DNA of 64,000 bases, taken from contig JAFWMN010000006.1 of NCBI GenBank assembly GCA_017513865.1, positions 107,064 to 171,063 of the forward strand, in the 5' to 3' direction. The DNA is from Bacilli bacterium (lineage in GTDB: Bacteria; Bacillota_I; Bacilli_A; RF39; UBA660). Below, in pieces: positions 1 to 64,000 of this stretch (positions are counted from its first letter, which is position 1; the number at the start of each line of letters is the position of its first letter). Under the pieces are notes generated by a model. That model saw nothing but the letters and a program-made list of their open reading frames with translations. It searched no databases and was not told where the DNA came from. Position numbers and translations under genes: made by a program.

Positions 1-1
1 T

Positions 2-370: not shown

Positions 371-418
371 TATGTATTCCATCATTTAGATGGAATATAC
401 CTGTTTAAAGGGGTATTT

Positions 419-1561: not shown

Positions 1562-1565
1562 AAAA

Positions 1566-4167: not shown

Positions 4168-4170
4168 TAA

Positions 4171-4204
4171 AAAACACTATTTTTTATGAATAGTGTTTTT
4201 TTTG
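4171..4204. terminator. Bidirectional rho-independent terminator between convergent genes.
   Basis: A perfect 11-bp inverted repeat (AAAACACTATT / AATAGTGTTTT) has a 7-nt loop and is followed by a T-run on the + strand. Confidence 0.7.
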
Positions 4205-4860
4205 ATAATCAAAAAAGCGGTTATTATAAAGAGAAAAATGCTGAAAATTTGGTTTGAGGAAATTAGTTCTTTAATGTGACTATACCTTAGAAAATCTAAG
4301 GAAAATTTAAGGATTGAAATTAAAAGTAAAGTGATATAAGAAATGTTTTTTTTGTTTTTATTTGTATTACAGAAAAGAAATAAAATAAAAAACACGAAAG
4401 ATTCTAATAACTGTATAGGGAATAGGGGAATATTTAATCCATGAGGGTAGGTTACGCTGAAAGGTCCATTATAAGGAATGCCATAGCAACACCCAACAAA
4501 GAAACATCCAATTTTTCCGAAACTATAAATTAGCGGTAATGAAAGAATTGAATATTTAATTATTTTTTTATCTGAAGGATATATTTTTTCATAAATTAAT
4601 GGTGATATGATAACGCCAATTAATCCCCCATATGAGGAAAGACCACATTCTAAAAACTTTTTTTTAAAGCCACTTACAACAAATGTGTAAGTTTTAGCAG
4701 ACATATAGGTGATAATGAAGAAAAATATAAAAAAAAGTAGGATATTTTTTTTAGATATATTTTCATTTTTTAATGCAAAAAAAACATATAAAATGCCAAT
4801 GATAATTGAGAAGGACATCATTATTTTATAAAAAGGAAAAGGAATGTTATGTATTATCAT
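4177..4860 (-). CDS. Lgt-family (prolipoprotein diacylglyceryl transferase-like) paralog, short at 227 aa, with a mutated signature motif.
   Basis: It is colinear with Lgt (YGGLIGVII aligns with Lgt HGGLIGAIL). The Lgt signature GRWGNFxNxEAHG is replaced by GKIGCFFVGCCYG, and the C-terminal region is truncated. Confidence 0.55.
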   Translation of the reverse strand: MIIHNIPFPFYKIMMSFSIIIGILYVFFALKNENISKKNILLFFIFFFIITYMSAKTYTFVVSGFKKKFLECGLSSYGGLIGVIISPLIYEKIYPSDKKIIKYSILSLPLIYSFGKIGCFFVGCCYGIPYNGPFSVTYPHGLNIPLFPIQLLESFVFFILFLFCNTNKNKKNISYITLLLISILKFSLDFLRYSHIKELISSNQIFSIFLFIITAFLIIKKNTIHKK

Positions 4861-5084
4861 ATTATCACAACTTTCTATTTGAATTTTATCACAAAACTAG
4901 TTTTAAAACAATATTTTTTTATAATCGAAATTATGTGTATATTAGCTTTTTTGTGTTGATTATAAGTGATTATTTGTATGTAAACTAGGTTCTTGGAAAT
5001 ATAATTAATATATGATAAAATAGTTTTGATAAAAAGAGGCTATAATGAAATCTGGTTTACCAGTGTAAGAAAAGGAGATATGCG

Positions 5085-5924
5085 ATGATTTTACTAGATG
5101 GAAAAAAAGCCAAAATAAGTATTTTAGAAGAATTAAAAGAGGAATTATTAAAACTTGATAGAAAATTAGGATTAACAGTTATTCAAATTGGTGATGATCC
5201 AGCCAGTAATGTTTATGTTAGGAATAAAGGTAAGATGGCCAATGATTTAAATTATAATTTTAATCATATAAAACTTGATGATGACATTACTGAAGAAGAT
5301 GTTTTAGCTTTAATTAATAAGCTTAATAATGATGATATAGTTGATGGTATTTTAGTTCAAATGCCTATACCTAAACATTTAGATTCTAAAAAAATTCAAA
5401 ACGCGATTATTTCAGTTAAAGATGTTGATGGACTTACTGATATAAATATGGGTAAGCTTGCTCATGGAGTTGATTCTTTGGTCCCTTGTACAGCCATGGG
5501 AATATTAGATTTATTAAGATTTTATAACTTAGATGTTGAAAAGAAAAATGTAGCTATTGTTGGTAGAAGTGATTTAGTTGGTAAACCTTTAGCAAGTTTA
5601 TTAACTAATAATAATGCGACTGTGACTTTGTGTCATTCTAAAACAGAAAATTTAAAAGAACATACGAAACTTGCGGACATATTAGTAGTAGCCGTTGGAA
5701 AACCTAAGTTAATAAATGATGAATATATAAAAGAAGGAGCAGTAGTAGTCGATGTTGGAATAAACCGTACGGAAGAAGGTTTGGTTGGTGATGTCGATTT
5801 CGAAAAGGTTAAAGATAAGGTAAGTTATATTACACCAGTTCCTGGAGGAGTTGGTCAAATGACTGTAGCGGAACTTGGTAAAAACACATATAAAGCACAT
5901 GTGCTTAGAAAGAAAAAATTGTAG
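5085..5924 (+). CDS. folD: Bifunctional methylenetetrahydrofolate dehydrogenase / methenyl-THF cyclohydrolase.
   Basis: Hallmark FolD motifs are present: IQIGDDPASNVYVRNK, VPCTAMGILDLL, GRSDLVGKPLASLL, VGINR, PVPGGVGQMTVAEL. Confidence 0.92.
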   Translation: MILLDGKKAKISILEELKEELLKLDRKLGLTVIQIGDDPASNVYVRNKGKMANDLNYNFNHIKLDDDITEEDVLALINKLNNDDIVDGILVQMPIPKHLDSKKIQNAIISVKDVDGLTDINMGKLAHGVDSLVPCTAMGILDLLRFYNLDVEKKNVAIVGRSDLVGKPLASLLTNNNATVTLCHSKTENLKEHTKLADILVVAVGKPKLINDEYIKEGAVVVDVGINRTEEGLVGDVDFEKVKDKVSYITPVPGGVGQMTVAELGKNTYKAHVLRKKKL

Positions 5925-6063
5925 ATTTATTTAAGATTGAGGATAATAAAAAGGAAAATATTAAGATTGATAAAATTTTAAAATAAGAGAGCAAGATTTT
6001 TAAATCTTGTTTTCTTATGCTATAAATGTTAGAATATTTTTAGTTTTAGAAAGGAGGCTTTCC

Positions 6064-8010
6064 ATGTTTGAACTTGTATCAAATTTTAAACCAACTGGTG
6101 ATCAGCCAGAGGCTATAAAAGAGTTAGTTGATGGTGTGCGTGAAGGGAAAAGGCAGCAGGTCCTAAAAGGGGTTACTGGTTCTGGTAAAACCTTTACAAT
6201 GGCTAATGTTATAAAAGAACTTGGCAAACCTACTTTAGTTTTAGCGCACAATAAGACCTTAGCAGGACAACTTTATGCAGAGTTTAAAGAATTATTTCCA
6301 AACAATCATGTATGTTATTTTGTATCTTATTATGACTATTATCAACCAGAAGCATATGTGGCTAAGACTGACACATATATAGAAAAAGACGCTTCTATTA
6401 ATGATGAAATAGATGAGCTTAGACATTATGCTACGGCATCACTTTTAGCTCATAAAGATGTTATTGTTGTTGCTTCAGTTTCTTGTATTTATGGTATAGG
6501 TGAAATCGAAGATTATAAAGAAAAAGTATTATTTTTAAATGTTGGTGAAAATGTTAATAGAGATAAAATACTTGAAAAATTAGTTGATATGCTTTATGAA
6601 CGAAACAATATTGATTTAAAAAGAGGAACTTTTAGAGTTAGAGGAGATATTTTAGAAATTGTTCCCATAGGACAACATTCACATGGAATTAGAGTTGAGT
6701 TTTTTGGGGACGAAATTGATAGAATTTCAGAGTTTGATTTAGTAACGGGATCATTAATAACTGATAAGAAATCATATACTTTATTTCCTGCAAGTCATTT
6801 TGTAACAAGTGAGGATAAGCTTAACGTCGCTATTGAAAGAATAAAAAATGAACTAGATGAGCAGTTAAATAAATTTAAAAGTGAAAATAAACTTTTAGAG
6901 TATCAAAGATTAAAAGAGAGAACTAATTATGATATAGAAATGCTTAGTGAAACAGGGTTTTGTAGAGGGGTTGAAAATTATTCTAGGCACTTAGCTTTAA
7001 GAGAAGCTGGAGTTGCCCCAACCACTTTAATAGATTTTTTTGGTGATGATTTTTTACTTTTTGTAGATGAATCTCATGTTACATTACCTCAAGTTAAAGC
7101 AATGTATAATGGAGATAGAATGCGTAAGCAAGCGTTAGTTGATTATGGGTTTAGACTTCCTAGTGCTTTAGATAATAGACCGCTTACTTTTTCAGAGTTT
7201 GAAAAAAAATTAGATAACGTTATTTATGTTTCCGCAACACCAGGTGATTATGAAATAGAAAAAAGTTCTAATAGGGTTATTGAGCAAATTATAAGACCAA
7301 CCGGATTACTTGATCCAGAAATAGAGGTTAAACCAACGAAAAATCAAATTGATGATTTGGTTGAGCAAATACATAAGCAAAATGAGAAAAATGAAAGAAC
7401 CTTGATAACTACTTTGACTATTAGAATGGCTGAAGAACTTACGGTTTATCTTAAGGATTTAGATATTAAAGTTGCTTACTTGCACAATGAAATTAAAACT
7501 TTAGAGAGATTGCAAATAATTCATGATTTGCGTAGTGGCAAGTACGACGTAGTTGTAGGAATAAATTTACTTAGAGAAGGAATAGATATACCGGAAGTTA
7601 GCTTAATTGCGATAATGGATGCGGATAAACAAGGGTTTTTAAGAAGTGAACGCAGTTTAATTCAAACAATAGGAAGAGCGGCCAGAAATGCTTCTGGAAG
7701 AGTAATTATGTATGCTGATGAGGTTAGTTCAGCTATGGATGTTGCTATTAAAGAGACAAATAGACGAAGAAAAATTCAAGAAGAATATAATGAAAAGCAT
7801 GGCATTGTTCCTAAGACGATTGTTAAAGCAATTAGAGAAGTTATTTCTAATAATATAGAAATTAAAGAAAAGAAACAAAAGATATCTAAGAAAGATCGCA
7901 ATCTTATGATGATAAATATTGAAAAAGAAATGAAAGAAGCGGCCAAAAATTTAGACTTTGAAAGAGCTATGGAACTTCGTGACATATTATTTGAAATGAA
8001 GAGTGAATAA
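6064..8010 (+). CDS. uvrB: Excinuclease ABC subunit B.
   Basis: The N-terminus is [18 protein letters not shown] with a GVTGSGKTF Walker A, followed by helicase motifs and a C-terminal UvrB/UvrC interaction helix ([11 protein letters not shown]). An AAAGGAGG RBS precedes ATG 6064; the track ORF begins upstream at 6007. Confidence 0.95.
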
Positions 8011-8815: not shown

Positions 8816-9680
8816 AAAAATCAAATTAGACGAAGATTTGTCTAATGAGGAACTTTGTAATAAAGTTCTTGACGATCTTCTTTCTTTAACTGGTTTGAAT
8901 TCTGTTAAAAAAGAGGTTATAAAACTTGCTCATTATTTAAAGTTTTTGAAAAAAGTAAGTTCAAAAGCAAATCTTGATAAGCTCAACTTACATATGGTTT
9001 TTAAGGGAAATCCAGGAACCGGAAAGACAACTGTAGCTAGAATTATGGCAAATATTCTTTATTATTTGGGCTATTTAGAAAATGATGAGATAGTGGAAGT
9101 AACACCGACAGATTTTATCGCGGGATACCTTGGTCAAACGGGTATAAAAACAAAAAAACTTTTAGAAAAGTGCCGTGGGGGTCTTATATTTATAGATGAG
9201 GCTTATAGTTTTAATAAAGGAAAAGACGAAGGTGATAATTCTTTTGCTGGAGAAGCTATTGCGGAGATAATCAAGGAAATGGAATCTAAAGAAACCGTAT
9301 TTATCTTTGCTGGATATGGTGATGAAATGGAAGAATTCATTAATTTGAATCCTGGTATTAGATCCCGCATCGGCTATCATATTGATTTTGAAGATTATTC
9401 TGAAGAAGAGCTTTTACAAATATTTTTTTCTAAATTGGAAAAAACTGGTTTTTCTTTATATGAAGATGCAGTTGAGGAGGTAAAAAAAATAATAAAAACC
9501 AAATCTCACGAAAAAAACTTTGGTAATGGTAGAATGATAGATAATTTATATAACAAATTACTTTTAGAACATGCAATGATTAACTGTGATGAGATTGATG
9601 AAGACAAATTATTAACTATTTCTAAAGAGGCAGTCTTAAATATTGAATTTAAAGGAAAGGCGGCGACTTATTTTGACTAA
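8781..9680 (+). CDS. SpoVK/CbbX-family AAA+ ATPase.
   Basis: Walker A 'MVFKGNPGTGKTTVARIMA' is essentially identical to SpoVK. Walker B is 'GLIFIDEAYSF', and arginine-finger and sensor regions are present. Confidence 0.8.
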   Translation: MEDDFLKNPNPKKIKLDEDLSNEELCNKVLDDLLSLTGLNSVKKEVIKLAHYLKFLKKVSSKANLDKLNLHMVFKGNPGTGKTTVARIMANILYYLGYLENDEIVEVTPTDFIAGYLGQTGIKTKKLLEKCRGGLIFIDEAYSFNKGKDEGDNSFAGEAIAEIIKEMESKETVFIFAGYGDEMEEFINLNPGIRSRIGYHIDFEDYSEEELLQIFFSKLEKTGFSLYEDAVEEVKKIIKTKSHEKNFGNGRMIDNLYNKLLLEHAMINCDEIDEDKLLTISKEAVLNIEFKGKAATYFD

Positions 9681-10212
9681 TATATTTGAAAACAAAATAT
9701 ATCAAAAACTAATTGATAATAGAATTATATTTTTAAATGGTGAAATAGATGATGAGTCGGCAAGCATGGTTGTTGCCAAGCTTTTGTATCTAGATTCTAT
9801 AAGCCATGAAGATATAGTAATATATATTAACTCTCCAGGAGGAAGTGTGACGAGCGGGCTTATGATATATGATACTATCAAATACTTAAAATCAGATGTT
9901 TCGACTATTAGTATAGGGTTATCAGCTTCGATGGCTTCAATTTTACTTATGTCGGGAACGCATGGTAAGCGAAAAATCCTTCCACACGGAAAAGTAATGC
10001 TTCATGAACTTTCAACAACAACGGGGGGAAAAATTTCCGATATTTTAGTTGCGGCTAATGAAGCAAAAAAAACGAATGAAATTCTCACAAAAATAATTTC
10101 TGAAAACAGCAAGTTAAATTATGAGCAGATTAAAGATAATTTAACCAAAGATTTATGGCTTGATAGTAATAAAGCTTTAGAATATGGCATTGTTGATAAA
10201 GTTATTTGCTAA
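9643..10212 (+). CDS. clpP: ATP-dependent Clp protease proteolytic subunit.
   Basis: ClpP motifs are present: 'IIFLNGEIDD…YINSPGGSVTSGLMIYDT…ISIGLSASMASILL…KRKILPHGKVMLHELS'. A TTG start (alternative TTG at ~9673) sits inside the 3' end of the AAA gene. Confidence 0.85.
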   Translation: MNLKERRRLILTNIFENKIYQKLIDNRIIFLNGEIDDESASMVVAKLLYLDSISHEDIVIYINSPGGSVTSGLMIYDTIKYLKSDVSTISIGLSASMASILLMSGTHGKRKILPHGKVMLHELSTTTGGKISDILVAANEAKKTNEILTKIISENSKLNYEQIKDNLTKDLWLDSNKALEYGIVDKVIC

Positions 10213-10283
10213 AAAGTGAATTTACTAATTCACTTTTTTAATATTTTATTAATAATATGATATAATTGTTAATAGGTGGAATT

Positions 10284-10676
10284 ATGAAAGAAAATTTAAA
10301 AAAATTATTTACTTTTTTTATAAAATTAGTCGGATATACTGTTATACTTATGGCAACTGCACTTATATTTCAAAACACGATATATATAGATAATTCAAAT
10401 TACGGATTATGGTGTTTTGTGGCAGCAGTACTAGTTTTTTTACTGAATGTGACAATAAAGCCATTTTTGGTGTGGCTTACAATTCCAATAACGGGAATTA
10501 CTTTGGGATTATTTTATCCTTTTATCAATTTAATTATATTAAAAATAGTTAGTATTATATTAGGAAGTCATTTTATAATATATGGTATTTTATATGCGGT
10601 GTTTGCTTCAGTTTTAATATCGTTTTTGAATATTTTATTGGATGAACTTGTTTTAAAAAAAATAGAGGGGAAATAA
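10284..10676 (+). CDS. YvlD/DUF360 (phage-holin-4_2-like) small membrane protein.
   Basis: It has four hydrophobic helices and an AGGTGG RBS. It is the synteny partner of uvrB, as in B. subtilis (uvrB-yvlD). Confidence 0.55.
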   Translation: MKENLKKLFTFFIKLVGYTVILMATALIFQNTIYIDNSNYGLWCFVAAVLVFLLNVTIKPFLVWLTIPITGITLGLFYPFINLIILKIVSIILGSHFIIYGILYAVFASVLISFLNILLDELVLKKIEGK

Positions 10677-10679
10677 TAT

Positions 10680-11483
10680 ATGAAATCAGTTATTGATTTG
10701 GGTTTTGTTTCTATTCATATTTATTCTTTATGTATTTTAATAGGTGTTTTACTATCTTTTTATTTAATTTTAAAAGAGAGCGAAAAGCATGGCTTTGATA
10801 AAGAAAAAATTTCAGATTTGCTTTTTTATACGATTATTTTTGGAATAATAGGTGCGAGATTATATTATTGTTTATTTAATTTAGATTATTATTTATCTAA
10901 TCCTTTTTCTGTTTTGAAAATATGGGAAGGGGGATTAGCTATACATGGAGGGATTATTGCTGGATTAATTACTATTTTTGTATATGCCAAAAGACATAAA
11001 TTAAACGTTCTTTGGCTTTTAGATTTTATAGTAGTTGGTTTAATAATTGCTCAAGCTATTGGTAGATGGGGAAATTTCTTTAATGGTGAGGCTCATGGGT
11101 CACTTACGACATTGTCTCATTTAAAAGGAATGAATTTACCTAGTTTTATTATTAAAGGAATGAAAATTGATGGAGTTTATTATATCCCAACCTTTTTATA
11201 TGAGTCTTTATGGTGTTTACTAGGGTTTATAATAATGATTTTAGTAAGACATAAAAAGAATATAAAAATAGGATATTTAACTGGTTTTTATTTTATTTGG
11301 TATTCTTTAGAAAGATTTTTTGTTGAAGGAATGCGTACAGATAGTTTAATGTTAGGTTTATTTAAAATCGCGCAAATAATCTCTATTATTATGTTTATAT
11401 GTGGTATTGTTATATTTATATATAGTTTTATTAATTCTTCAAACTATAATAAAAAACTTGAAAGGAATGATAAAAATGACTAA
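10680..11483 (+). CDS. lgt: Prolipoprotein diacylglyceryl transferase.
   Basis: 'LKIWEGGLAIHGGIIAGL' and the Lgt signature 'GRWGNFFNGEAHG' are present, along with 'PTFLYESLW…EGMRTDSLM'. Confidence 0.92.
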   Translation: MKSVIDLGFVSIHIYSLCILIGVLLSFYLILKESEKHGFDKEKISDLLFYTIIFGIIGARLYYCLFNLDYYLSNPFSVLKIWEGGLAIHGGIIAGLITIFVYAKRHKLNVLWLLDFIVVGLIIAQAIGRWGNFFNGEAHGSLTTLSHLKGMNLPSFIIKGMKIDGVYYIPTFLYESLWCLLGFIIMILVRHKKNIKIGYLTGFYFIWYSLERFFVEGMRTDSLMLGLFKIAQIISIIMFICGIVIFIYSFINSSNYNKKLERNDKND

Positions 11484-15250: not shown

Positions 15251-15299
15251 TTTTTAGATGAGGACAAGTTTAATAAAATATAGTATAATGTTATAAAGG

Positions 15300-16274
15300 G
15301 TGATAATCGTGCAAAAATTCTTTGAAGATTTTACAAAATTGATAAAAAAACATGAACAAATTATTATTATGACACATTCTATACCTGATTTGGATGGTAT
15401 GGGTAGTGCAATTGTTTTAAATGAAATTTTAAATAAATTTAACAAAGAGAGCTATATTGTTGCCCCTAAAAAAATGATAAGAAATTCACTTAATAAAGCT
15501 ATTAAATATGTGAACGATGAAGGTTATCTAATTCCTTTTAAACATGAAAAATATATAAATTTTGACAAGGCTTTACTAATTATTTTAGATGTTTCAGAAC
15601 CAGAGCTTTTAGAGTGTGAAGAACTTATTAAAAGAGGGTATGATACGGTTATAATTGATCATCATTCGTTAAATGAAAGAACTATTCGCGATGCAGATCT
15701 TTTATACTTAAATGATGAAATGTCTAGCATTGTCGAAGTTATTACTAATTATATAAAATATTTAGAATTTAATGTTGATAAAATTTTTTATACAATATTA
15801 TTAACTGGTATATTTATAGACACGAATTATTTTAATTTAAAAACGACGCCAAAAACGTTTGAAACAGCTAGTTATTTACTTGAAAGAGGTGCGAATTTAA
15901 ATGTAAAACAACAGATTCTTAAAGAAAATTTAAATGATGTTTTGGAGCGTTATTCTTATATTGAAAAAATGATTAAGATAGACGAAAAGGTTTATCTAAG
16001 CATTATTGATGATAAATTATGTACAAATGTCGATGTGGCTAAGTTGGCTGATGAAATGCTTAAATTCTTTGAGGTAAAAGTAGCTTTAGCTATAGGAAAG
16101 AAAAATGATGAAGAAATTCTTGTAAGTGCAAGATCTCTTGGCGAAGTTGATGTATGTGAATATATGAGAAAACTTGGTGGTGGGGGTCATTTGGCCGCGG
16201 CAGCTGCTTTAGTAGAATCTAACAATTTTGAAGAAGTTATTGAAAAATTAAAAAATATTATTAAGGGGGAATAA
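15300..16274 (+). CDS. DHH-DHHA1 phosphoesterase (NrnA/GdpP-like catalytic domains only).
   Basis: DHH motifs ('IIMTHSIPDLDGMGSAI', 'IIDHH') and the DHHA1 motif 'GGGHLAAAAA' are present. It lies upstream of rplI, as gdpP does in Bacilli. It has a GTG start (alternative GTG at 15309). Confidence 0.75.
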   Translation: MIIVQKFFEDFTKLIKKHEQIIIMTHSIPDLDGMGSAIVLNEILNKFNKESYIVAPKKMIRNSLNKAIKYVNDEGYLIPFKHEKYINFDKALLIILDVSEPELLECEELIKRGYDTVIIDHHSLNERTIRDADLLYLNDEMSSIVEVITNYIKYLEFNVDKIFYTILLTGIFIDTNYFNLKTTPKTFETASYLLERGANLNVKQQILKENLNDVLERYSYIEKMIKIDEKVYLSIIDDKLCTNVDVAKLADEMLKFFEVKVALAIGKKNDEEILVSARSLGEVDVCEYMRKLGGGGHLAAAAALVESNNFEEVIEKLKNIIKGE

Positions 16275-16275
16275 T

Positions 16276-16713
16276 ATGCGTGTAATTTTACTTGAAGATG
16301 TGAAGAAGCAAGGAAAAAAAGATGATATTATAACAGTTAAAGATGGATATGGAACATACCTTATCAACAATAAAAAAGCAATTTTGGAAACTAAAGGTAG
16401 TGCAAAAGTATTACAGAAGCAAACGGAAACGAGAGCTTTAGAAGAAAATTTACTTATAAGAGATTGCGAAGAACTTAAGAAAAAACTTGAAAAAATGGTA
16501 TTAAAATTCAAAGTTAAAACAGGATCTAATGATCAAGTTTTTGGTAAAATAAGCTCTAAACAAATCGCTGAAGAACTTAATAATAAAGGAATAAAAATAG
16601 ATAAGAAAAAAATTAAGATTGCTGTTCCTATAAACAATTTAGGAACGACCAATGTAAAAATAAATTTACACAAAAAAGTGGAGGCAACTTTAAAAATCGA
16701 ATTACATAAGTAG
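16276..16713 (+). CDS. rplI: 50S ribosomal protein L9.
   Basis: The N-terminus MRVILLEDVKKQGKKDDIITVKDGYGTYL matches the L9 family. Confidence 0.93.
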   Translation: MRVILLEDVKKQGKKDDIITVKDGYGTYLINNKKAILETKGSAKVLQKQTETRALEENLLIRDCEELKKKLEKMVLKFKVKTGSNDQVFGKISSKQIAEELNNKGIKIDKKKIKIAVPINNLGTTNVKINLHKKVEATLKIELHK

Positions 16714-40902: not shown

Positions 40903-41259
40903 ATGGCTTATAGAAAATTAGGTCGTGACAATAAACATAGAAGAGCAATGCTTGCCAATCTAACTAAAGATGTCATAAATAATGAAAGTATTAAAACTAC
41001 TGAAACTAGAGCTAAAGAAGTACGTAAGTTTGTCGACAAGATGATTACTTATGGAAAAGATGGTTCAGTAGGTGCTAGAAGAAGAGCTTTAGCTTTCTTA
41101 CATAATGATAAGAAAACAGTTGATAAAATATTTAATGATTTAGCTGTTCGTTATGCCAAAAGAGAAGGCGGTTATACTAGAATTTTAAAACTAGATGAAC
41201 GTAGGGGCGATGATGCTTTAGTTGTTATTTTAGAATTAGTAGAAGGAGATGCTAAATAA
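40903..41259 (+). CDS. rplQ: 50S ribosomal protein L17.
   Basis: '[20 protein letters not shown]' is present. Confidence 0.95.
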
Positions 41260-41271
41260 GCATCTTTTTTT
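41248..41271 (+). terminator. Rho-independent terminator of the alpha operon.
   Basis: GATGCT-aaataa-GCATC plus T7; the rplQ stop lies in the loop. Confidence 0.6.
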
Positions 41272-41301: not shown

Positions 41302-41330
41302 TTGTTTTTTGCTTTGGAATGTGCTATAAT
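41302..41330 (+). promoter_or_regulatory. Sigma-A promoter (TTGTTT, 17-nt spacer, TGcTATAAT) for the 41366 gene.
   Basis: Read directly from the sequence. Confidence 0.5.
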
Positions 41331-41365
41331 TTAGATGATAATAATGATAATTACGAGGTGTTTAT

Positions 41366-42514
41366 GTGAGAAGACTTAAACGAAATAGATTTAAAAATCA
41401 AAAAAATATATTAATAATTGCTGTATTAGGTCTTTTTTCTGTATTTACGGTTGGCTATGCAGCTTTTCAAACTAATATTAGTCTAACGGCTAAAGGTAAT
41501 GTATCACCAACCGCAACGTATACAGTAGATGATTTAAAAGAGCTTGTTACAGTTACTGGTGATGGACTATATACGGATTCTGATGAGCAAGGTAGATATG
41601 TTTATAAAGGAGCAAGTCCTAATAATTATTTATCTTTAAATGGAGAAACATGGAGGATAATGAGTATTGAATCAGATGATACTTTAAAAATAATAAGAGA
41701 AAATTCAGTTGGAAACGTTCTTTTTGATCCAGGAAGAGCTTCTGTAATATCCGGCATAACGGCAAGTAATTCAGACGTGGGAACAAGGTATTCATCTTCT
41801 TCCTCTGATTATTGTTATGCTTCCTCATTTAACTTGGGATGTAATGTATGGGGCAGTAAAGACACAATGGCAGATTCTGGTGGGTCATTATTGCGTAATA
41901 CTCAAGGTGGTGCCAAGATTAAAAGGAGTGTAACTGATACAGTTACATATAATCTTCCGGATGATGAAGCTTATGTAAATGTTTACTTAAATGGTGGAAC
42001 TTATGCTGGTGTTACAGTCCCTGGATGGTATAGCACTTGGTCTAATAGTTTGAGTAATGTTGTTAAAAGTTATATATCAATTCATCTACACAATGTTGGT
42101 TTGGTTTCAAATACGAGTGGGCAACTTACAGCCACAGATATAGTTCAAGAACATACTTATACTTGGTGGGGAATTGTAGGTCTTATGAATGCTTCTGATT
42201 ATGTAAGGGCCAGTTCTAATTCCGCTTGTACTGGTGTTTATGCTTATGCAAATAATTCATCATGTTATAATAATAGTTCTTCACATAACTATTTAATGAA
42301 ATCGACAACCCAGTGGACAATAGCGCCCCTTTCTGGAGCTATACATCGTCCATGGGCAACTAATTCATCAAATCTAAGTTTTTTCAATGCTTCCAACGCA
42401 TATAGTGTTCGTCCGGTTCTTTATTTGTATGAGGGTGTTTTATTAAAAGGTGAGGGAACAATTTCAAAAATGTATCAAATTGCTAATACGGAAGTTTTTA
42501 TGCCAATTGCTTAA
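41366..42514 (+). CDS. Secreted Ser/Asn/Thr-rich protein with a SipW-cognate-type signal peptide (…FTVGYAAFQTNISLTAKG…).
   Basis: Its N-terminal motif is nearly identical to that of the 2605 protein. The C-terminal 'TQWTIAP…AYSVRPVLYL' is reminiscent of DUF1566/Lcl-like domains, though that is recall only. Confidence 0.6.
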   Translation: MRRLKRNRFKNQKNILIIAVLGLFSVFTVGYAAFQTNISLTAKGNVSPTATYTVDDLKELVTVTGDGLYTDSDEQGRYVYKGASPNNYLSLNGETWRIMSIESDDTLKIIRENSVGNVLFDPGRASVISGITASNSDVGTRYSSSSSDYCYASSFNLGCNVWGSKDTMADSGGSLLRNTQGGAKIKRSVTDTVTYNLPDDEAYVNVYLNGGTYAGVTVPGWYSTWSNSLSNVVKSYISIHLHNVGLVSNTSGQLTATDIVQEHTYTWWGIVGLMNASDYVRASSNSACTGVYAYANNSSCYNNSSSHNYLMKSTTQWTIAPLSGAIHRPWATNSSNLSFFNASNAYSVRPVLYLYEGVLLKGEGTISKMYQIANTEVFMPIA

Positions 42515-42538
42515 AAGATGTTTTATACATCTTTTTTC
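42515..42538 (+). terminator. Rho-independent terminator.
   Basis: AAGATGT-tttata-ACATCTT plus T6. Confidence 0.6.
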
Positions 42539-42599
42539 TTTATTCAATTTACTTTTATTAATACATAATATATAATAGTTAATGGGGTAAGGTGATTTT

Positions 42600-43352
42600 A
42601 TGAAAGCTTTAATAACAGGTGCGAGTAGTGGACTTGGAGCAGATATGGCTAGAGTATTAGTCGAAGAAGGCTATGAAGTAATACTAGTTGCTAGAAGAAA
42701 AGGGAAATTGGAAAAGTTAGCTAAAGAACTTGGCGACAATGCTAAAATAATTGTTAAAGATATTTCTAGTACTTATAACTGTGTGGAACTTTATAATGAA
42801 GTTAAGAATGAAGATATCGATATTTTAATTAATAATGCTGGTTTTGGATTATGCGGATTTTTTAATGAAACTAATTTAGATAAGGAACTAGATATGATTG
42901 ATTTAAATATTAAATCACTTCATACTTTAACCAAATTATTTTTAAAAGATTTTGTAAAAAAGGATCAAGGCTATATTTTAAATGTAGGTAGTAGTGCAGG
43001 GTTTATGCCTGGACCTTTAATGACTACTTATTATTCTACTAAAAACTATGTTGTTAGCTTTACATCAGCTTTATATGAGGAACTTAGAAGACTTGGTAGT
43101 AATGTGTCTATTAGCTGTCTATGCCCTGGACCAGTTGATACTGAATTTAATAAAGTAGCTAGAGTTAAATTTGCAGTTAAGGCTATGGAAAGTAATAAAG
43201 TCGCAAGATATGCCATTAAAAAAATGTTTGATGAAAAATTAATAATAGTTCCTGGTTTTGGAATGAAAGCGGCTTTGTTTTTTAGTAAGTTTATGTCTAG
43301 AAAAAGTTTACTTAAAATGACTTATAAGATTCAAGAAAAGAAGACAAAATAA
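42600..43352 (+). CDS. Short-chain dehydrogenase/reductase (SDR) family oxidoreductase.
   Basis: It has the 'ITGASSGLG' cofactor motif, 'NNAG' and a catalytic YxxxK (YSTKNYV → Y…K). Confidence 0.85.
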   Translation: MKALITGASSGLGADMARVLVEEGYEVILVARRKGKLEKLAKELGDNAKIIVKDISSTYNCVELYNEVKNEDIDILINNAGFGLCGFFNETNLDKELDMIDLNIKSLHTLTKLFLKDFVKKDQGYILNVGSSAGFMPGPLMTTYYSTKNYVVSFTSALYEELRRLGSNVSISCLCPGPVDTEFNKVARVKFAVKAMESNKVARYAIKKMFDEKLIIVPGFGMKAALFFSKFMSRKSLLKMTYKIQEKKTK

Positions 43353-49782: not shown

Positions 49783-50238
49783 ATGAAAAAGATATTTATA
49801 TATTATAGTTTAAGTGGTAATGGTGATTTTGTTGCTTCCTACTTAAAAGAAAAAGGCTTTGATATTAGAAAAGTAATATCTAGTGATAAGATGCCCCAGA
49901 ATACTTTTTTAAGAATTATGACTGGTGGTTTTTTGGCAGGAATTGGTCATAAATCAAAACTAATTAATTTTGATAATGATATAAGGGATTATGATGAGAT
50001 AATAATTGGTTCACCTATTTGGAATGGTAGACTTTCTTGTCCTATTAATTCAGTATTAGATAATCTTGATTTAAACAACAAAAGATTAACTTTTATATTA
50101 TATAGTGGTTCTGGCGAGGCGCCCAAAGTAAATGAAAAATTGTCTCAGAAATTTCCCCAATCTAAAATTATTCATTTAAAAGAACCAAAAAGTAACATAG
50201 AAAACATGAAAACAATTTTTAATGAGGAGGACATATGA
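49783..50238 (+). CDS. Flavodoxin-like fold protein (Flavodoxin_4-type).
   Basis: 'KIFIYYSLSGNGDF' and 'IIIGSPIWNG' FMN-binding-like motifs are present. Confidence 0.55.
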   Translation: MKKIFIYYSLSGNGDFVASYLKEKGFDIRKVISSDKMPQNTFLRIMTGGFLAGIGHKSKLINFDNDIRDYDEIIIGSPIWNGRLSCPINSVLDNLDLNNKRLTFILYSGSGEAPKVNEKLSQKFPQSKIIHLKEPKSNIENMKTIFNEEDI

Positions 50239-51323
50239 ATAAAATTGATATTTTAAAATTTAATAATGAAAAAAAGAATATGGTGTATGGACCTTATTCA
50301 ATATTAGTGGCTTTATCAATGCTTGATGAAGGAGCTACGGAGGCTACTAAAGAAAGTTTAGATTTGTTTTTAGGAAATATTCCTATAAATAAATATAATA
50401 ATATTGAAAATGTTTTGTCAGTAGCTAATAAAATGTATATTAAAGATGATATAGCGAAAGATATAAACGAATCTTATAAAAATGTTTTAAGTGACAAGTA
50501 TAATGCTGAAATTGAAATTAATGATTTTAGCGATGAGTTTGTTATGAATAATTGGATTAACAATAAAACTTTCGGGCAGATAAAAAATATTGTTACTAAA
50601 GATGCTCTTTTAAATAATAATTTATTCTTAATTAATACTACGGCGATCGATATGGAATGGCAAGCAGAAATAAATGGTAGTTCTGTTAATGGCGGAATAT
50701 TTAACAATGGTTCAGAAGTAGAGGCAAGTTATATTTATGGTTTTACAAAGAATATGGCTTCTTATTATGAGAATGACGAGGTTTTATCTTTAGGTCTTAA
50801 TTTAAAAAAATATGATGATAATGATTATGAATTTGTGGCTATTCAACCTAAAGGTGTTGAACTTAGTGAGTATATAAATAATTTAAGTGACAATAAAGTA
50901 AATAATATTCTTGCAAATTTGAAATCTTTGTTAGACGAACCAAGAAATGTAGATATAAGTATTCCTAAATTTTCTTTTAATTATAGTTTGAATTGTTTAA
51001 GTACTTTTAAAAATATGGGTTTAGAAAATGTTTTTGAAAATGCCCATTTTGGCAAAATTGGAGATCTTCCAACACTTAATTTAGATGTTCTTCATAAAAC
51101 TAATATCGATTTTTCTGAGGTTGGTTTAAAAGCCGCAAGTGCAACAGTAGTATTATTATTTGAAGGTGCTTATTTCGATCCAAATGAAAGACTAATTATT
51201 GAAATAAACAAACCATTTATGTTTGTTATAAGAGAAAAGAATAAAAACGATATTTTGTTTATGGGTACTGTTTATAATCCTGTTTTATGGGCTGATGATT
51301 CAAAAAACTATGCTTATAAATAA
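50235..51323 (+). CDS. Serpin-family serine protease inhibitor (intracellular, no signal peptide).
   Basis: It has the 'YGPYSILVALSMLDEGATEATKESL' serpin N-terminal helix, a hinge/RCL 'EVGLKAASATVVLL', and the C-terminal 'KPFMFVIRE…ILFMGTVYNP'. A GAGGAGG RBS is present, and the start overlaps the flavodoxin stop (ATGA). Confidence 0.75.
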   Translation: MNKIDILKFNNEKKNMVYGPYSILVALSMLDEGATEATKESLDLFLGNIPINKYNNIENVLSVANKMYIKDDIAKDINESYKNVLSDKYNAEIEINDFSDEFVMNNWINNKTFGQIKNIVTKDALLNNNLFLINTTAIDMEWQAEINGSSVNGGIFNNGSEVEASYIYGFTKNMASYYENDEVLSLGLNLKKYDDNDYEFVAIQPKGVELSEYINNLSDNKVNNILANLKSLLDEPRNVDISIPKFSFNYSLNCLSTFKNMGLENVFENAHFGKIGDLPTLNLDVLHKTNIDFSEVGLKAASATVVLLFEGAYFDPNERLIIEINKPFMFVIREKNKNDILFMGTVYNPVLWADDSKNYAYK

Positions 51324-53807: not shown

Positions 53808-54707
53808 ATGAAAAAAATTGTTTTTGCAGTACTATTATCCCTTTTTGTTTTTACAAAGCCCGTTTTAGCTGAAGAAACAACAATAACGTATAATAAGTTG
53901 CAAGGAATTGCTTATAACCAGAAAATAGGCAACGAATTAAAATCGAATATAGTAACTTTTTTCCAAATGAAAAATCGAATTGCTTACTGTATTGAGCCAG
54001 GTGTGGAAATAAATGAAAGGTATTATGATATTGGCTATGATTGGAATGTGACTAATTTGTCTAGTGAATTGAAAGAAGAAATAGAAAAAATAGGATATTA
54101 TGGCTATGAATATCCCGGGCATAATAATAGTTATTATTATATTGCAGCTCAAGAGTTGATTTGGAAAGCTGTAAGACCAGATATCGAAGTGACATGGACT
54201 ACTGAAAAAAATTTAGGTGGGTCAATTATTGATATCAGTAAAGAGAAAAATGAAATAATGGATTTAGTTAATAATCATTCTTTAGTTCCAAGTTTTGCAG
54301 ATCAAATGTTTATTGATTATACGGGCAAAGAAATAATTTTAAAAGATGAAAATAATGTTCTAGATTATTATGAAGTTTCTGATAGTAACAATCATGCAAT
54401 TATTAGAGATGGTAATGTGTTAAAAATAAAGCTCAACGAAAAAAAAGTAGATGATGAAGAAATATTTTTGACCCGAAAATATTATGATAAGGAACCATTA
54501 TTAGTTTATAGTAGAGGAAATTCACAAAAATTAGCTGCTCTTAGAATTACAATGGATAGAAGATCTAGTTTCACTATTGGAAATAAAGAAGAACCAGAAG
54601 AAATTATAGAAGTTCCTGATACTGGGATTGATATTAATTTAGGGGAGTCAATATTTATGACTGTCTTAGGCTTAGGAATGATTATTAGTGTTTTTAAAAT
54701 TAATTAA
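53808..54707 (+). CDS. Sortase-anchored surface protein with a putative thioester (TQXA-like) domain and a VPDTG sorting signal.
   Basis: A signal peptide is present. 'AYCIEPG' fits the TED Cys motif [YFL]C-phi-[DNE], and 'IAAQELIWKA' fits the Gln motif phi-Q-x-phi-phi-W. The C-terminus is 'VPDTG' plus a hydrophobic segment and a 'KIN' tail. Confidence 0.55.
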   Translation: MKKIVFAVLLSLFVFTKPVLAEETTITYNKLQGIAYNQKIGNELKSNIVTFFQMKNRIAYCIEPGVEINERYYDIGYDWNVTNLSSELKEEIEKIGYYGYEYPGHNNSYYYIAAQELIWKAVRPDIEVTWTTEKNLGGSIIDISKEKNEIMDLVNNHSLVPSFADQMFIDYTGKEIILKDENNVLDYYEVSDSNNHAIIRDGNVLKIKLNEKKVDDEEIFLTRKYYDKEPLLVYSRGNSQKLAALRITMDRRSSFTIGNKEEPEEIIEVPDTGIDINLGESIFMTVLGLGMIISVFKIN

Positions 54708-55239
54708 ATTTTTATCATTTGTATTTTTGTTTTTTTCATTTAGTCTATGTAATTATAATGAAAACAGATTAAATAATAAAGTAGATGAATATATAAGTCA
54801 CAATTATTTAAACGAAAAAGTTTCAGCAGAGCCATCTAAACCGATTACTTTAAGATCTAATCAAAGTATTTATATTCCTAAAATTAATTTAGAGAAAAAT
54901 TTATATAGCATTAATTCTAAACTTAATACAGTTAATAAGAATATTCAAATATTAAAAAATTCTGATATGCCGGATAAAGAAAACGGTAATTTTGTATTAG
55001 CCGCACATAGTGGGAATAGTTCTGTTTCTTATTTTCATAATTTATATAAACTTGATATCGGTGATGAGGTAATAATAAAATATAATAATCATAAATATAT
55101 TTATGCTGTGGATAAAAAATATGAGGTAATTAAAACAGGTAAAGTATCAATTAAAAGGGATAAAAACAAAAATTCAATAACGTTAATAACTTGTAAGGAA
55201 AAAGACAAGCAATTAGTTGTTATTGGCTATTTAACTTAA
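54688..55239 (+). CDS. Sortase (small, class B/D-like) transpeptidase.
   Basis: It has an N-terminal TM anchor, a 'LAAHSG' His motif and the 'TLITC' catalytic Cys motif. A GTG start overlaps the substrate gene's 3' end. Confidence 0.8.
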   Translation: MFLKLIKFLSFVFLFFSFSLCNYNENRLNNKVDEYISHNYLNEKVSAEPSKPITLRSNQSIYIPKINLEKNLYSINSKLNTVNKNIQILKNSDMPDKENGNFVLAAHSGNSSVSYFHNLYKLDIGDEVIIKYNNHKYIYAVDKKYEVIKTGKVSIKRDKNKNSITLITCKEKDKQLVVIGYLT

Positions 55240-56022: not shown

Positions 56023-56955
56023 ATGACAACGAAAACATTTCGAACTTTAGATGAACAAATTGGTATTTTAAGAAGCAAGGGACTTACTGTTAATGACGAA
56101 GAAAATGCTAGAAAAGTTTTATATAGAGAAAATTACTTTTTTATAAGTGGATATAGGCATTTATTTACGCTTAAAGGAGAAAAAGATAATTATATAAAGG
56201 GAACCACTTTTGATGAACTTTATGCGACTTTTGTTTTTGATAGAAGAATTAGAAATACCTTTTTTAAGAATATTTTAATTGTTGAAAATAATTTAAAATC
56301 AATTATGAGTTATCAATTGTCTAAGAAATATGGTATTAAAGAAAAAGACTATTTGGAACCAACAAATTTTTCTGATGATGCGATTAGATCAAGGCAAGTT
56401 TACGATGTTTTAAATAAAGTTAAAAGGCAAATTAGAGTTAATGGTAATAAGCATACAGCTACTTATCATTATATAAATAATTATGGATATATTCCTTTAT
56501 GGATTTTAGTTAAAGTTTTATCATTTGGAATTATGTCGGAGTTTTTTGATATTTTAAAACTAGAAGATAAAGAAGAAATTATAAAACCATATCAAATTGA
56601 TGTTGAAACAATGGTTGTATTTTTAGCTTTGCTTTCTAATTTTAGAAATGTTTGTGCGCATGAGGATATGCTTTATGATCATAGAACTCAAAGATCTATT
56701 CCTGATACAAAATATCATGAGGCATTAGGCATTGAAAAAAATGAGGATGGTTATATATACGGTAAAAATGATTTATTTAGTTTGGTAATTATTCTTAAAT
56801 ATATGCTTAGAGATGAAGAATTTTATGAAATGATAGATGAGATTAAAAGAGAAGTTGATCTTTTAGATGAAAATGTTGACATTGTTCCTTTAGACCATAT
56901 TTTAAACAAAATTGGTTTTCCTAGTAATTGGTATGATATAAAGGATCTTGATTAG
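56023..56955 (+). CDS. Abi_2 family (AbiD/AbiF-like) abortive-infection protein.
   Basis: It is ~310 aa, with 'RRIRNTFFKNILIVENNLKS' and the conserved 'LSNFRNVCAHEDMLYD' block typical of Abi_2. It has its own promoter (TGtgTTATAAT at ~55995). Confidence 0.65.
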   Translation: MTTKTFRTLDEQIGILRSKGLTVNDEENARKVLYRENYFFISGYRHLFTLKGEKDNYIKGTTFDELYATFVFDRRIRNTFFKNILIVENNLKSIMSYQLSKKYGIKEKDYLEPTNFSDDAIRSRQVYDVLNKVKRQIRVNGNKHTATYHYINNYGYIPLWILVKVLSFGIMSEFFDILKLEDKEEIIKPYQIDVETMVVFLALLSNFRNVCAHEDMLYDHRTQRSIPDTKYHEALGIEKNEDGYIYGKNDLFSLVIILKYMLRDEEFYEMIDEIKREVDLLDENVDIVPLDHILNKIGFPSNWYDIKDLD

Positions 56956-62027: not shown

Positions 62028-62744
62028 CTATTTTTTTATTTCAACACTTACGGGATAGTGATCACTTATATATTTATTTTTATATTTATAATCGTGTTTT
62101 ATAGGATTTTCAAATTTCAAATTTTTATCGATTAGTATGTGATCTAAGTGATATATTTCTTTTTTTGTTGTAAAGGTTTTTCCAATATTTTTAGTGGTAT
62201 CGATGAAATTGTTTTTTTCACAGAAGTTTTTAATTCTTTTTATGCCTAGGTTGAAATCACCGGTCATAATAATTGGTTTATCTTTTTTTAATAAATTTGT
62301 AATACATTTTAACTGAAGCATTTTATTTTTATCTACTTTGTTAGATAAATGAGTATTATAAAGATAAAATTCTTTTGTTTCAATTTCAGTTATTATTCTT
62401 GGGAATTTATCATTTTTAAACTTAGTTTTTGGTATTAATGGAGTTTCTGATAGTGAAAATGTATTAGTTTTTAACACTTTTATTTTTGAATTTACTAATA
62501 TACAGTTATATTCATCAAAAGTTCTATGATTTCTATTTCGGCTTTCACCATAGAAATTATATTGTAAATTGTTTTCTTTTAATAATTTTTCTAATCTTTT
62601 TTTAGCTTTATAAGTCATTTCTTGAGTGCCGATTATATCTGGTTTTTCTTCTTTTATTAAATTTACAAAGCCTTTCAATCTTTTTTTCCATTTACCAAAA
62701 ATAAATAGTCCATCATTTTTTAGATTAAATGTCATTATTTTCAT
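62028..62744 (-). CDS. Endonuclease/exonuclease/phosphatase (EEP) family protein.
   Basis: 'MKIMTFNLKN', 'IIGTQEM' and 'DHYPVSVEI' are present. Confidence 0.75.
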   Translation of the reverse strand: MKIMTFNLKNDGLFIFGKWKKRLKGFVNLIKEEKPDIIGTQEMTYKAKKRLEKLLKENNLQYNFYGESRNRNHRTFDEYNCILVNSKIKVLKTNTFSLSETPLIPKTKFKNDKFPRIITEIETKEFYLYNTHLSNKVDKNKMLQLKCITNLLKKDKPIIMTGDFNLGIKRIKNFCEKNNFIDTTKNIGKTFTTKKEIYHLDHILIDKNLKFENPIKHDYKYKNKYISDHYPVSVEIKK

Positions 62745-62773: not shown

Positions 62774-63394
62774 TTAAGAGCGTTTCACTTTTTTTCTTTT
62801 TTTAAAATATATTATAACAGTTATAATAAATAAAATAATTAGAACTACTAGTGTTAAATGAGCATAAGTATCGAAGACTGCTAATATCTTTTCCCATTTT
62901 TTACCGACAATGCTTCCGGATATAGAAAGCACAGAATTCCATATTGCTGAACCAACAATGGTGTATAAAAGGAATTTCGGCATTTCCATTTCACTCATAC
63001 CGGCTGGGATGGAAATTAAACTTCTTAATATTGGCACAAATCTGCAGAAAAACACTGTTTTATTTCCTTTGGTATCAAACCATTCATCAGCTTTATCAAT
63101 ATCTTTTTCTTTTAATCTTAATATTTTTCCTATTTTTCCTTTAACTAGTTTTTTTAATCTTTCTTTGTTTAATATTTTTCCAATATAGTATAAGATTAAA
63201 GCTCCTATTAAAGATCCTAAAGTAGAGGCAATTATAACACCAATAATATTTAATTTAGAATAAGTAGTCATAAATCCACCGAATAGTAAAATAACTTCTG
63301 ATGGGATTGGTGGGAATATATTTTCAATTGCTATTAAAGAAAAAACGCCCAAATAGCCAAATTTATTCATAATTGAAATTATAGCAGTTTTCAT
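62774..63394 (-). CDS. DedA-family membrane protein.
   Basis: The 'ENIFPPIPSEVILLFGG' motif and multiple TM helices are present. Confidence 0.8.
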   Translation of the reverse strand: MKTAIISIMNKFGYLGVFSLIAIENIFPPIPSEVILLFGGFMTTYSKLNIIGVIIASTLGSLIGALILYYIGKILNKERLKKLVKGKIGKILRLKEKDIDKADEWFDTKGNKTVFFCRFVPILRSLISIPAGMSEMEMPKFLLYTIVGSAIWNSVLSISGSIVGKKWEKILAVFDTYAHLTLVVLIILFIITVIIYFKKRKKVKRS

Positions 63395-63424: not shown

Positions 63425-64000
63425 TTACTCAAATGGTTTATATATTTTAGCGATAGCTTCGGCAACTTTTATACCATCCATGGCAGCACTCATAATTCCG
63501 CCAGCATATCCGGCTCCTTCACCGCAAGGGTATATGCCTTTAATATTACTTATTAAATTATCGTCTCTTATTATTTTTATAGGTGATGACGTTCTGCTTT
63601 CAACAGCTGATAATATGGCATCATCTGAAGCAAAACCATTTATTTTTTTATCGAAGTGTAATATAGCTTCTTTTAACGATGTGTTTATATATTTTGGAAA
63701 TATATTATTTAAATTAGCGAAAGTATAATTTCCTTTAAATATAGGAGCTATATTTCCCAATTTGTTACTTATTTTATTATCTATAAAATCTTTAAATAAC
63801 TGTGTTGGTATTTTCCCTTTTCCCTCATTATACGTTGCTTTTTCTAATTTTCTTTGAAATTTTGCACCATCTAGTGGATTATAACCGAAATCATCAGGCG
63901 TGATAGTTACGATAATTGCGCTGTTGGCATTTTCTTCATCCCTTTTATGGTTACTCATTCCATTTATGGAAAGCATACCTTCTTCTGATGAAGAATTTAC
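63425..64000 (-). CDS. C-terminal part of an FAD-dependent oxidoreductase (HI0933/YhiN-like). The gene continues beyond the window end.
   Basis: 'YPCGEGAGYAGGIMSAAMDGIKVAEAI' is typical of the C-terminus of this flavoprotein family. The frame is open to position 64000. Confidence 0.6.
   Translation of the reverse strand, partial: VNSSSEEGMLSINGMSNHKRDEENANSAIIVTITPDDFGYNPLDGAKFQRKLEKATYNEGKGKIPTQLFKDFIDNKISNKLGNIAPIFKGNYTFANLNNIFPKYINTSLKEAILHFDKKINGFASDDAILSAVESRTSSPIKIIRDDNLISNIKGIYPCGEGAGYAGGIMSAAMDGIKVAEAIAKIYKPFE

Follow-up and report, generated by a model that had tools for sequence, protein, structure and literature searches.

The subject of this analysis is a gene at positions 41366-42514 on the + strand of a 64,000-nucleotide stretch of contig JAFWMN010000006.1 (the window), part of a metagenome-assembled genome (MAG) of a Bacilli bacterium with a G+C content of 29.5%. 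The gene, referred to here as the target, lies directly downstream of rplQ and encodes a protein of 382 residues; the identical protein (P0001) is deposited as NCBI IKG27_02260 and annotated as 'hypothetical protein'. The target is best described as a putative TapA-like strand donor of a TasA-superfamily fibre with a DUF6273 lectin-like head, encoded outside the fibre cassette and belonging to a large family with an undescribed leader.

The target gene and the peptidase/fibre cassette

The target open reading frame (ORF) begins with a GTG codon at 41366 and ends with a stop codon at 42512-42514. The start is preceded, at a distance of 5 nt, by the ribosome-binding site GAGGTG (41355-41360, + strand), and the ortholog in the related MAG L006 has ATG at the homologous position. 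The local gene order is rpoA-rplQ-[target]-SDR-M14-ecfA-ecfA'-truA-rplM, in which the target is flanked by rplQ (40903-41259) and the SDR gene (42600-43352). RNA folding places a hairpin followed by a U-run (UUUUUUU) over the rplQ stop codon (41245-41267, + strand; 9-bp stem, -10 kcal/mol, z -3.08), likely the intrinsic terminator of the rpoA-rplQ unit, and a second hairpin with a U-run past the target stop (42513-42535, + strand; 9-bp stem, -7.8 kcal/mol, z -4.33), likely the terminator of the target itself. A consensus terminator scan listed no terminator on the + strand because the stems are AT-rich, whereas direct folding did show the hairpins. Between the first hairpin and the start codon, a putative promoter with an extended -10 element (TGcTATAAT) was read by eye at 41302-41330 (+ strand): it combines a -35 element TTGTTT (41302-41307), a 17-nt spacer with TG at 41322-41323 and a -10 element TATAAT (41325-41330). 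The L006 ortholog retains TGTGCTACAAT at the matching site, and a consensus promoter scanner reported only a weaker, overlapping 9/12 site (41314-41342). The downstream SDR gene has its own promoter, TTTACT-17-TATAAT, at 42548-42576. Because of the flanking hairpins and the readable extended -10 promoter, the target looks like a monocistronic unit within an otherwise conserved ribosomal/ecf/truA block, which bears out an earlier note on this DNA that had credited the gene with its own promoter and terminator.

The same note had described the target, together with the SDR and M14 genes, as an interruption of a conserved rplQ-ecfA-ecfA'-ecfT-truA arrangement. Synteny was compared across 44 metagenomic contigs whose RplQ is 70-86% identical and which carry enough downstream sequence. 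The target does occupy a variable position in this sample, but the SDR gene is not part of the insertion: the commonest order, found in 14 of the 44 contigs, is rplQ>SDR>ecfA>ecfA'>truA, and M14 occurs in few. The slot between rplQ and SDR holds proteins with G-Y-A leaders in L144 and, as a tandem pair, in L149; prepilin-type proteins in L096, L127 and L145/L146; a DUF6273 protein anchored by a transmembrane (TM) segment in L093 and a similar TM-anchored protein in L104; and lipoproteins and others elsewhere. Two relatives, L006 (64% identity) and L010 (42%), share the complete order rpoA-rplQ-[homolog]-SDR-M14-ecfA-ecfA'-truA-rplM. The same insertion in at least two related MAGs makes it a lineage feature, not a strain-level event. 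The ecfT gene of the quoted arrangement has no local counterpart, with only a 36-bp gap between ecfA' (ending at 46153) and truA (starting at 46190), and it is also absent between these genes in L006 and L010, the closest relatives. Ten candidate ORFs in other parts of the window were checked, and none is CbiQ-like. An ORF of ~190-257 residues, an ecfT candidate, lies between ecfA' and truA in only some of the related contigs; as this ORF is absent in the window, the quoted arrangement is not exactly the local ancestral one.

The beginning of the window (1-4167) is occupied by a four-gene cassette on the + strand. The first gene encodes a putative fibre subunit of 186 residues; only its C-terminal part (1-370) lies in the window, and the full gene, L001:9392-9952, was taken from DNA upstream of it. 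The second gene (419-1561) encodes a polytopic archaeal/endoplasmic-reticulum-type signal peptidase I of 380 residues (TIGR02228, 89.9 bits, cutoff 51.85), with at least seven hydropathy peaks followed by a catalytic domain containing SNSMAP, ITHR and GDNN; it fails the Bacillus SipW equivalog NF046067 (60.3 against a cutoff of 190). The third gene (1539-2618) encodes a DUF5305 protein with two TM segments (PF17231, 53.3 bits, cutoff 29), presumed by analogy to be a signal-peptidase accessory subunit, a role described for DUF5305 proteins elsewhere (bioRxiv 10.64898/2026.01.04.697558; PMC11821415); a DUF5305 gene adjoins the peptidase gene also in L083 and L086. The fourth gene (2596-4167) encodes a 523-residue leader-bearing protein with an fn3 match of 28 bits, called the 2605 protein in the earlier note and the 2596 protein here. 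The same slot in other cassettes is filled by proteins of 791 and 826 residues with GYALYGQ or GYAVFF leaders. This unit of a small subunit, a ~375-residue peptidase, a DUF5305 protein and a large leader-bearing protein recurs in unrelated contexts.

In its gene content, the cassette is a TasA-superfamily fibre locus. An AlphaFold2 model (mean predicted local distance difference test score, pLDDT, 89.5) of P0241, which is 96% identical to the 186-residue protein, was compared with known structures by Foldseek. The leading matches were CanA, the Pyrodictium cannula fibre (9h8b, E 6.9e-4, probability 1.0), and the B. subtilis TasA fibre (8aur, E 1.1e-3), followed by chaperone-usher pilins (Pap/Cfa) and the Tafi pilus. 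The best matches of the model are thus donor-strand fibres, with a predicted fold similarity that is significant but loose. At the sequence level, the 186-residue subunit has no Peptidase_M73 match, and PDB sequence searches with this protein and with the target family profile returned nothing meaningful.

Two side observations concern the surroundings of the cassette. Directly upstream (L001:7040-9282) lie a Fic-domain gene and a gene for a TMEM43-family membrane protein. Two paralogs of lgt (prolipoprotein diacylglyceryl transferase) are encoded at 4177-4860 (- strand) and 10680-11483 (+ strand).

A leader and strand shared by the target and the cassette

The N-terminus of the target reads MRRLKRNRFKNQKN-ILIIAVLGLFSVFTV-GYA-AFQTNISLTAKGNV and can be divided into two segments. 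Residues 1-32 (41366-41461, + strand) form a leader composed of a basic n-region (1-15), an h-region (16-29) with a core of ~14-15 residues, and G30-Y31-A32, with cleavage predicted after A32. Residues 33-46 (AFQTNISLTAKGNV; 41462-41503, + strand) form an amphipathic, donor-strand-like segment, assigned from its conservation, a pLDDT below 50 and its alignment to the fibre-subunit family; its hydrophobic residues fall on every second (even) position, with an aromatic at mature position 2. The remaining residues, 47-382 plus the stop codon (41504-42514, + strand), make up the body, a DUF6273/C-type-lectin-like globular domain.

In total, 239 homologs of the target were found at E<=1e-3, and conservation was computed over 43 of 40-65% identity. 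Residues 30-45 (GYAAFQTNISLTAKGN) are the best conserved 16-residue stretch of the family, with a mean top-residue frequency of 0.82 vs 0.43-0.70 in the body. No variation occurs at G30, Y31, F34, T36, G44 or N45, and at least 90% of the relatives keep A32. Since conservation runs 14 residues beyond the predicted cut (AFQTNISLTAKGN) and exceeds that of the body, the motif looks like more than a cleavage site and, judged from its sequence, resembles a donor strand of the TasA/TapA type.

This conservation bears directly on one alternative, in which the target is an ordinary substrate of a dedicated peptidase, a lectin-like exoprotein that is released or loosely retained without attachment to a fibre, and in which the conserved residues after the cut serve peptidase recognition or form a short pro-segment. 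We regard this alternative as unlikely. It agrees with the homology of the target leader to those of the cassette proteins and with the special P' residues that SipW-type peptidases need (PMC10269814). Against it, conservation continues for 14 residues past the cut and is higher there than in the folded body, a protein whose predicted fold resembles donor-strand fibres begins with the identical segment, TapA offers a precedent, and the occurrence of the same body behind type IV pilin N-termini suggests that it is displayed on filaments.

The leader fits the pattern of S26B (SipW/archaeal-type) peptidase substrates, with a basic n-region, the short h-region ILIIAVLGLFSVFTV, small residues at -3/-1, an aromatic at P2' and the junction G-Y-A/A-F. 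This junction obeys the -3/-1 rule, and its P2' residue is Phe, just like that of TasA (T-W-A/A-F); the same report (PMC10269814) connects an aromatic at P2' with processing of the SipW type and describes it as blocking LepB. On these grounds we infer that the leader is cleaved, and the 419-1561 peptidase is, from the sequence, the probable enzyme. Two other export signals were considered. A Tat (twin-arginine translocation) signal is unlikely, since not all family members have the Arg-Arg pair of positions 2-3, and it is missing from the 186-residue protein; a class III (prepilin) signal of a type IV pilin (PF07963) was rejected for the target, which has no G-F-T-L-x-E motif.

An AlphaFold2 monomer of the target (pLDDT 91) shows a single helix over residues 2-30, a disordered segment over residues 30-46 (pLDDT <50) and a confident globular body over residues 50-375 (pLDDT >90). 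The disorder of the segment in this model is compatible with strand donation but is no proof of it. The continuous helix also accommodates a different reading, in which the leader is an uncleaved signal anchor: helix 2-30 would tether the protein, and GYAAF...KGN would act as a juxtamembrane linker or as a motif that contacts a partner such as DUF5305. The target has no other anchor, and L093, the body-homologous relative at the same locus, carries a plain long TM anchor, both of which favour a tether. Nevertheless, the hydrophobic core of only ~14-15 residues is followed by G-Y-A in agreement with the -3/-1 rule, the same leader is borne by a fibre-type subunit that must be released to polymerise, and TasA, TapA and TafA, with comparable leaders, are cleaved. 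An uncleaved anchor therefore appears improbable, somewhat more so than the soluble exoprotein.

The similarity between the N-termini of the target and the 2596 protein was the starting observation of the earlier note. When the window is translated in six frames, a loose regular expression for the motif matches only these two among the stop-to-stop ORFs of 80 or more residues, in both cases ~30-44 residues into the protein. A profile of the h-region and motif, built from 42 relatives with the target left out and searched against 283 window ORFs, recovers the target at E 4e-18, the 186-residue protein at E 2.3e-5 and the 2596 protein at E 0.013, with the other 280 ORFs at E >1. The scores were compared with composition-preserving shuffles of the full sequence, of the sequence from the motif onward or of the 20-residue motif only (3000 trials each). 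The 10.2 bits of the 2596 protein are reached in 1/3000, 1/3000 and 3/3000 trials, respectively, and the 20.2 bits of the 186-residue protein in 0/3000 trials of each test. In hhalign, the match of the target family to the 186-residue family reaches a probability of 96.2% (E 2.2e-9); its 41 aligned columns all belong to the leader and strand and take in the h-region and G[YF]AAF. A profile-profile comparison of the 186-residue family with the 2596 protein gives 93% (E 3.5e-7, 34 columns). The profile search and the shuffled controls thus support the motif similarity, and with it the proposed link of the target, by leader homology, to a signal-peptidase operon 37 kb away; on sequence grounds we hold with high confidence that the target leader is homologous to the leaders of the cassette proteins.

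The copy of the N-terminal module in the 186-residue protein, the third found and the closer one, starts with MEKKRNGQIAVILVLSVAILFMSIGFAAFFTDLTINGTATV and contains ...LFMSIGFA-AFFTDLTINGTATV. Its strand, AFFTDLTINGTATV, shows the same alternation of hydrophobic residues and the same aromatic at position 2 as the target. The corresponding leader of the 2596 protein reads ...SFISVGYA-LYGQNLSVSGN. Searches of NCBIfam and Pfam with the full proteins and N-terminal fragments found no family for the leader (0 NCBIfam matches for the full-length target and 2596 protein), and no naming of the GYAAF-type motif was found in the literature.

Proposed strand donation and display of exchangeable bodies

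The body of the target is, by its model, a DUF6273/C-type-lectin-like fold, although in sequence it matches no Pfam family at E<=1 and stays below the 23.5-bit cutoff of DUF6273 (PF19789). DUF6273 is known, for example, from the N-terminal domain of ThomasA, an IgA protease of Thomasclavelia ramosa, and from the 'tentaclins' of phages, which are targeted by diversity-generating retroelements (DGRs); the ThomasA domain has itself been assigned no function (PMC12402451). Unlike these proteins, the target has no peptidase domain and no DGR in the window. Within the family, residues 311-350 (42300-42430), just before the VRPVLYL C-terminal strand, are the least conserved internal part (0.43); they sit where DGR-type C-lectin proteins bear the variable ligand-binding loop.

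A phage-derived or DGR-diversified receptor-binding protein that happens to lie beside rplQ, with an incidental resemblance to the peptidase operon, is very improbable. Low-stringency blastn of the target against the 64-kb window returned chance matches only, so that no template or variable repeat for the target was detected there; no phage genes lie nearby, and the N-terminal similarity is statistically supported.

In the mechanism that we propose, the target would be an exported, lectin-like surface protein of two modules. Module 1 (residues 1-46) would comprise a Sec-type leader and the amphipathic strand, the leader being cut after G30-Y31-A32 by the 419-1561 peptidase together with its DUF5305 partner. 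Module 2 (residues 47-382) would be a DUF6273/C-type-lectin-like binding domain without its own anchor. The target has no membrane, wall or C-terminal anchor, and without a C-terminal anchor the cleaved protein needs some mechanism of attachment. Strand insertion is proposed since the leader and strand are common to the 186-residue protein, whose predicted fold is that of the TasA/CanA donor-strand subunits. The freed strand would enter the acceptor groove of the 186-residue subunit, as in B. subtilis TapA with TasA, and would thereby fix the lectin module at one end of the fibre. No acceptor (pilin-like) domain is apparent in the body, which has the DUF6273 fold, and the alignment to the subunit family is restricted to 41 N-terminal columns; without such a domain, the target could only be a terminal subunit, placed either at the tip or as a cell-proximal nucleator. 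By analogy with TapA, the chance that the strand plugs into the fibre is even at best, perhaps marginally lower, and for the reading as a whole, in which a TapA-like strand donor ties a lectin module to a TasA-like fibre, we consider the case evenly balanced.

TapA (YqxM) of B. subtilis is the closest known parallel. SipW processes it, its N-terminus is similar to the donor strand of TasA, and its body is unable to take up a strand, so that TapA donates its own strand and occupies the filament start (PMC10151520, PMC9674648). The target shares with TapA a leader of the archaeal-type-peptidase kind, with cleavage predicted here, an unstructured mature N-terminus like the donor strand of the major subunit, and a body that is not an acceptor. 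It differs in that no sequence homology is detectable, the TapA body is a V-set immunoglobulin (Ig) domain whereas that of the target is DUF6273/C-type-lectin-like, and the target gene lies 37 kb from the peptidase gene, outside the operon, as one of a large paralogous repertoire.

A second parallel is offered by the AbpX/Tafi loci, which combine a major subunit with a dedicated signal peptidase I of type TIGR02228 that has ~ten TM helices, an accessory DUF5305 protein, and further subunits of the minor and tip kinds (PMC11821415; bioRxiv 10.64898/2026.01.04.697558). The cassette at 1-4167 likewise has a subunit with CanA/TasA fold matches, a TIGR02228 peptidase, a DUF5305 protein and a large leader-bearing protein, and the aromatic at mature position 2 is shared with these systems and with the TasA donor strand. 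In contrast, the acidic residue at position 4 is not kept here, and the tip proteins of AbpX/Tafi are encoded within the locus, whereas the strand-bearing genes described here are scattered singly through the genome. A third comparison is with the curated class TIGR04088 (TasA, CalY), which has in common with the target the small residues at -3/-1, the P2' aromatic and the association with an S26B peptidase, but whose motif is G-G-T-x-A-x-F-x-D instead of the G-Y-A-A-F-x-T-x-L-x-I of the target.

Several observations weigh against a TapA-like role. The earlier note had called the target a SipW-cognate type of substrate, and in the curated sense this does not hold: neither TIGR04088 nor TIGR04089 gave a match at E<=10, whereas a TasA control scored 41.9 bits, and the TIGR04088 search (cutoff 19 bits) used N-terminal fragments of 54 and 64 residues from the two window proteins. 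Mature position 4 is acidic in AbpX and TasA and Thr or Asn in the target family. The h-region and GYA together span 18 residues, a length that fits an uncleaved signal anchor too. In the relative L013, the nearby peptidase is a short SipW of 184 residues, with no cassette. Finally, the TM-scores of P0241 to TasA and CanA are only 0.37-0.43, and Ig-like sandwiches are common folds.

Module swapping is directly visible among the relatives. In some of them the same body begins directly after the strand boundary but stands behind a type IV pilin N-terminus (PF07963, 27 bits, cutoff 21.2); in P0099, residue 140 aligns to target residue 39, with 42% identity over target residues 39-373. L035 encodes both forms 4.4 kb apart, a protein with a GYAAF leader (9506-10915) and a prepilin-type protein (15289-16617), with homologous DUF6273 bodies. 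In relatives of the P0044 type, a domain related to the 186-residue subunit is inserted between strand and body. The type IV pilin-like DUF6273 proteins (P0099, P0108) have homologous bodies and solitary genes and occupy, in relatives, the same slot after rplQ; they differ from the target in having a class III signal, an alpha-1 helix and a prepilin peptidase in place of a type I leader and a beta-strand.

The leader itself is widespread. In an exhaustive search of 1.84 billion representatives, a leader-only profile matched 2014 clusters at E<=1e-3, of which 493 reach E<=1e-10. Among the best 150 of the 2014 matches, the leader starts within the first 32 residues of proteins that range from 50 to 2335 residues. 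A word-indexed search with the short leader profile gave only fragments of <=100 residues and nothing on bodies. A Pfam scan of 113 matches identified, behind the leader, DUF6273, Listeria-Bacteroides repeats, DUF285, BspA-type leucine-rich repeats, Ig-like domains and Laminin_G_3, and the Peptidase_M73 (TasA family) body only once. Single MAGs hold up to at least nine loci of the DUF6273-bodied type alone.

Leader genes are usually solitary among housekeeping genes, as is also the case in L016, L022 and L035. The gene for P0008, a leader-sharing paralog in the same MAG as the target, comes after a penicillin-binding protein gene and two small ORFs and is itself closely followed by prfA. The set of leader-sharing proteins that the earlier note foresaw therefore stands, with the 186-residue protein upstream of the peptidase and P0008 as further members, but its designation as a regulon gains no support: each gene seems to have a sigma-A-type promoter of its own, the regions upstream of the target, its L006 and L010 orthologs, P0008 and the 186-residue gene share only sigma-A-type -10 elements, and no shared operator was seen in them. 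'Substrate repertoire' is a defensible term in its place.

A separate observation concerns L074, where a different SipW cluster (39-6634) contains proteins with classical leaders of the 'GTYAKYTSS' type, and a GYAAF-type DUF6273 gene lies ~2 kb beyond it, directly upstream of rpsJ. From this proximity, the two leader classes seem to coexist in one genome.

More tentatively, and with rather less confidence than strand insertion itself, the leader and strand may constitute an undescribed portable 'plug' that mounts an interchangeable repertoire of adhesins on one TasA-like fibre in uncultured gut and rumen Bacilli. The fibre would be supplied by one small cassette, in parallel to type IV pilins and exchanging modules with them, and genes of this kind would land preferentially behind the rplQ terminator. 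Only recently have TasA-superfamily fibres come to be seen as a way of building biofilm matrices that is used across domains of life; few accessory and tip subunits are known for them, and these are encoded in the locus. If the proposal is true, poorly known gut Bacilli would own a modular display in which a single fibre carries numerous exchangeable binding heads, and this would account for the diversification of adhesion in commensals with small genomes. It would also define a peptide-groove pair and hint at the purpose of DUF6273, also in the Thomasclavelia IgA protease. The sequence rule, h-region followed by G-Y-A-A-F-x-T-x-L-x-I, would help to annotate thousands of 'hypothetical proteins'.

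Other features of the window and its relatives

Within 53808-55239 lies a gene for a thioester-domain (TED) adhesin whose C-terminus bears a VPDTG sorting signal and a TM tail, followed by one for a sortase-like protein with the motif TLITC. Read from their sequences, the two form a second, sortase-based surface-display system, which implies that the organism has a cell wall. The window also encodes a bacterial serpin (50235-51323; PF00079, E 1e-49) and an Abi_2 abortive-infection-like protein (56023-56955; E 3e-38). Most of the longer ORFs point in one direction: 53 of the 60 window ORFs of at least 150 residues lie on the + strand and 7 on the - strand, among them 62028-62744, 62774-63394 and 63425-63976.

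Several of the related MAGs, including L006, L010, L013 and L014, carry a Bacilli-type ribosomal operon and members of the target family yet are labelled Muribaculaceae, Sphaerochaetaceae, Vescimonas or Oscillospiraceae; they are probably mis-binned or mislabelled.

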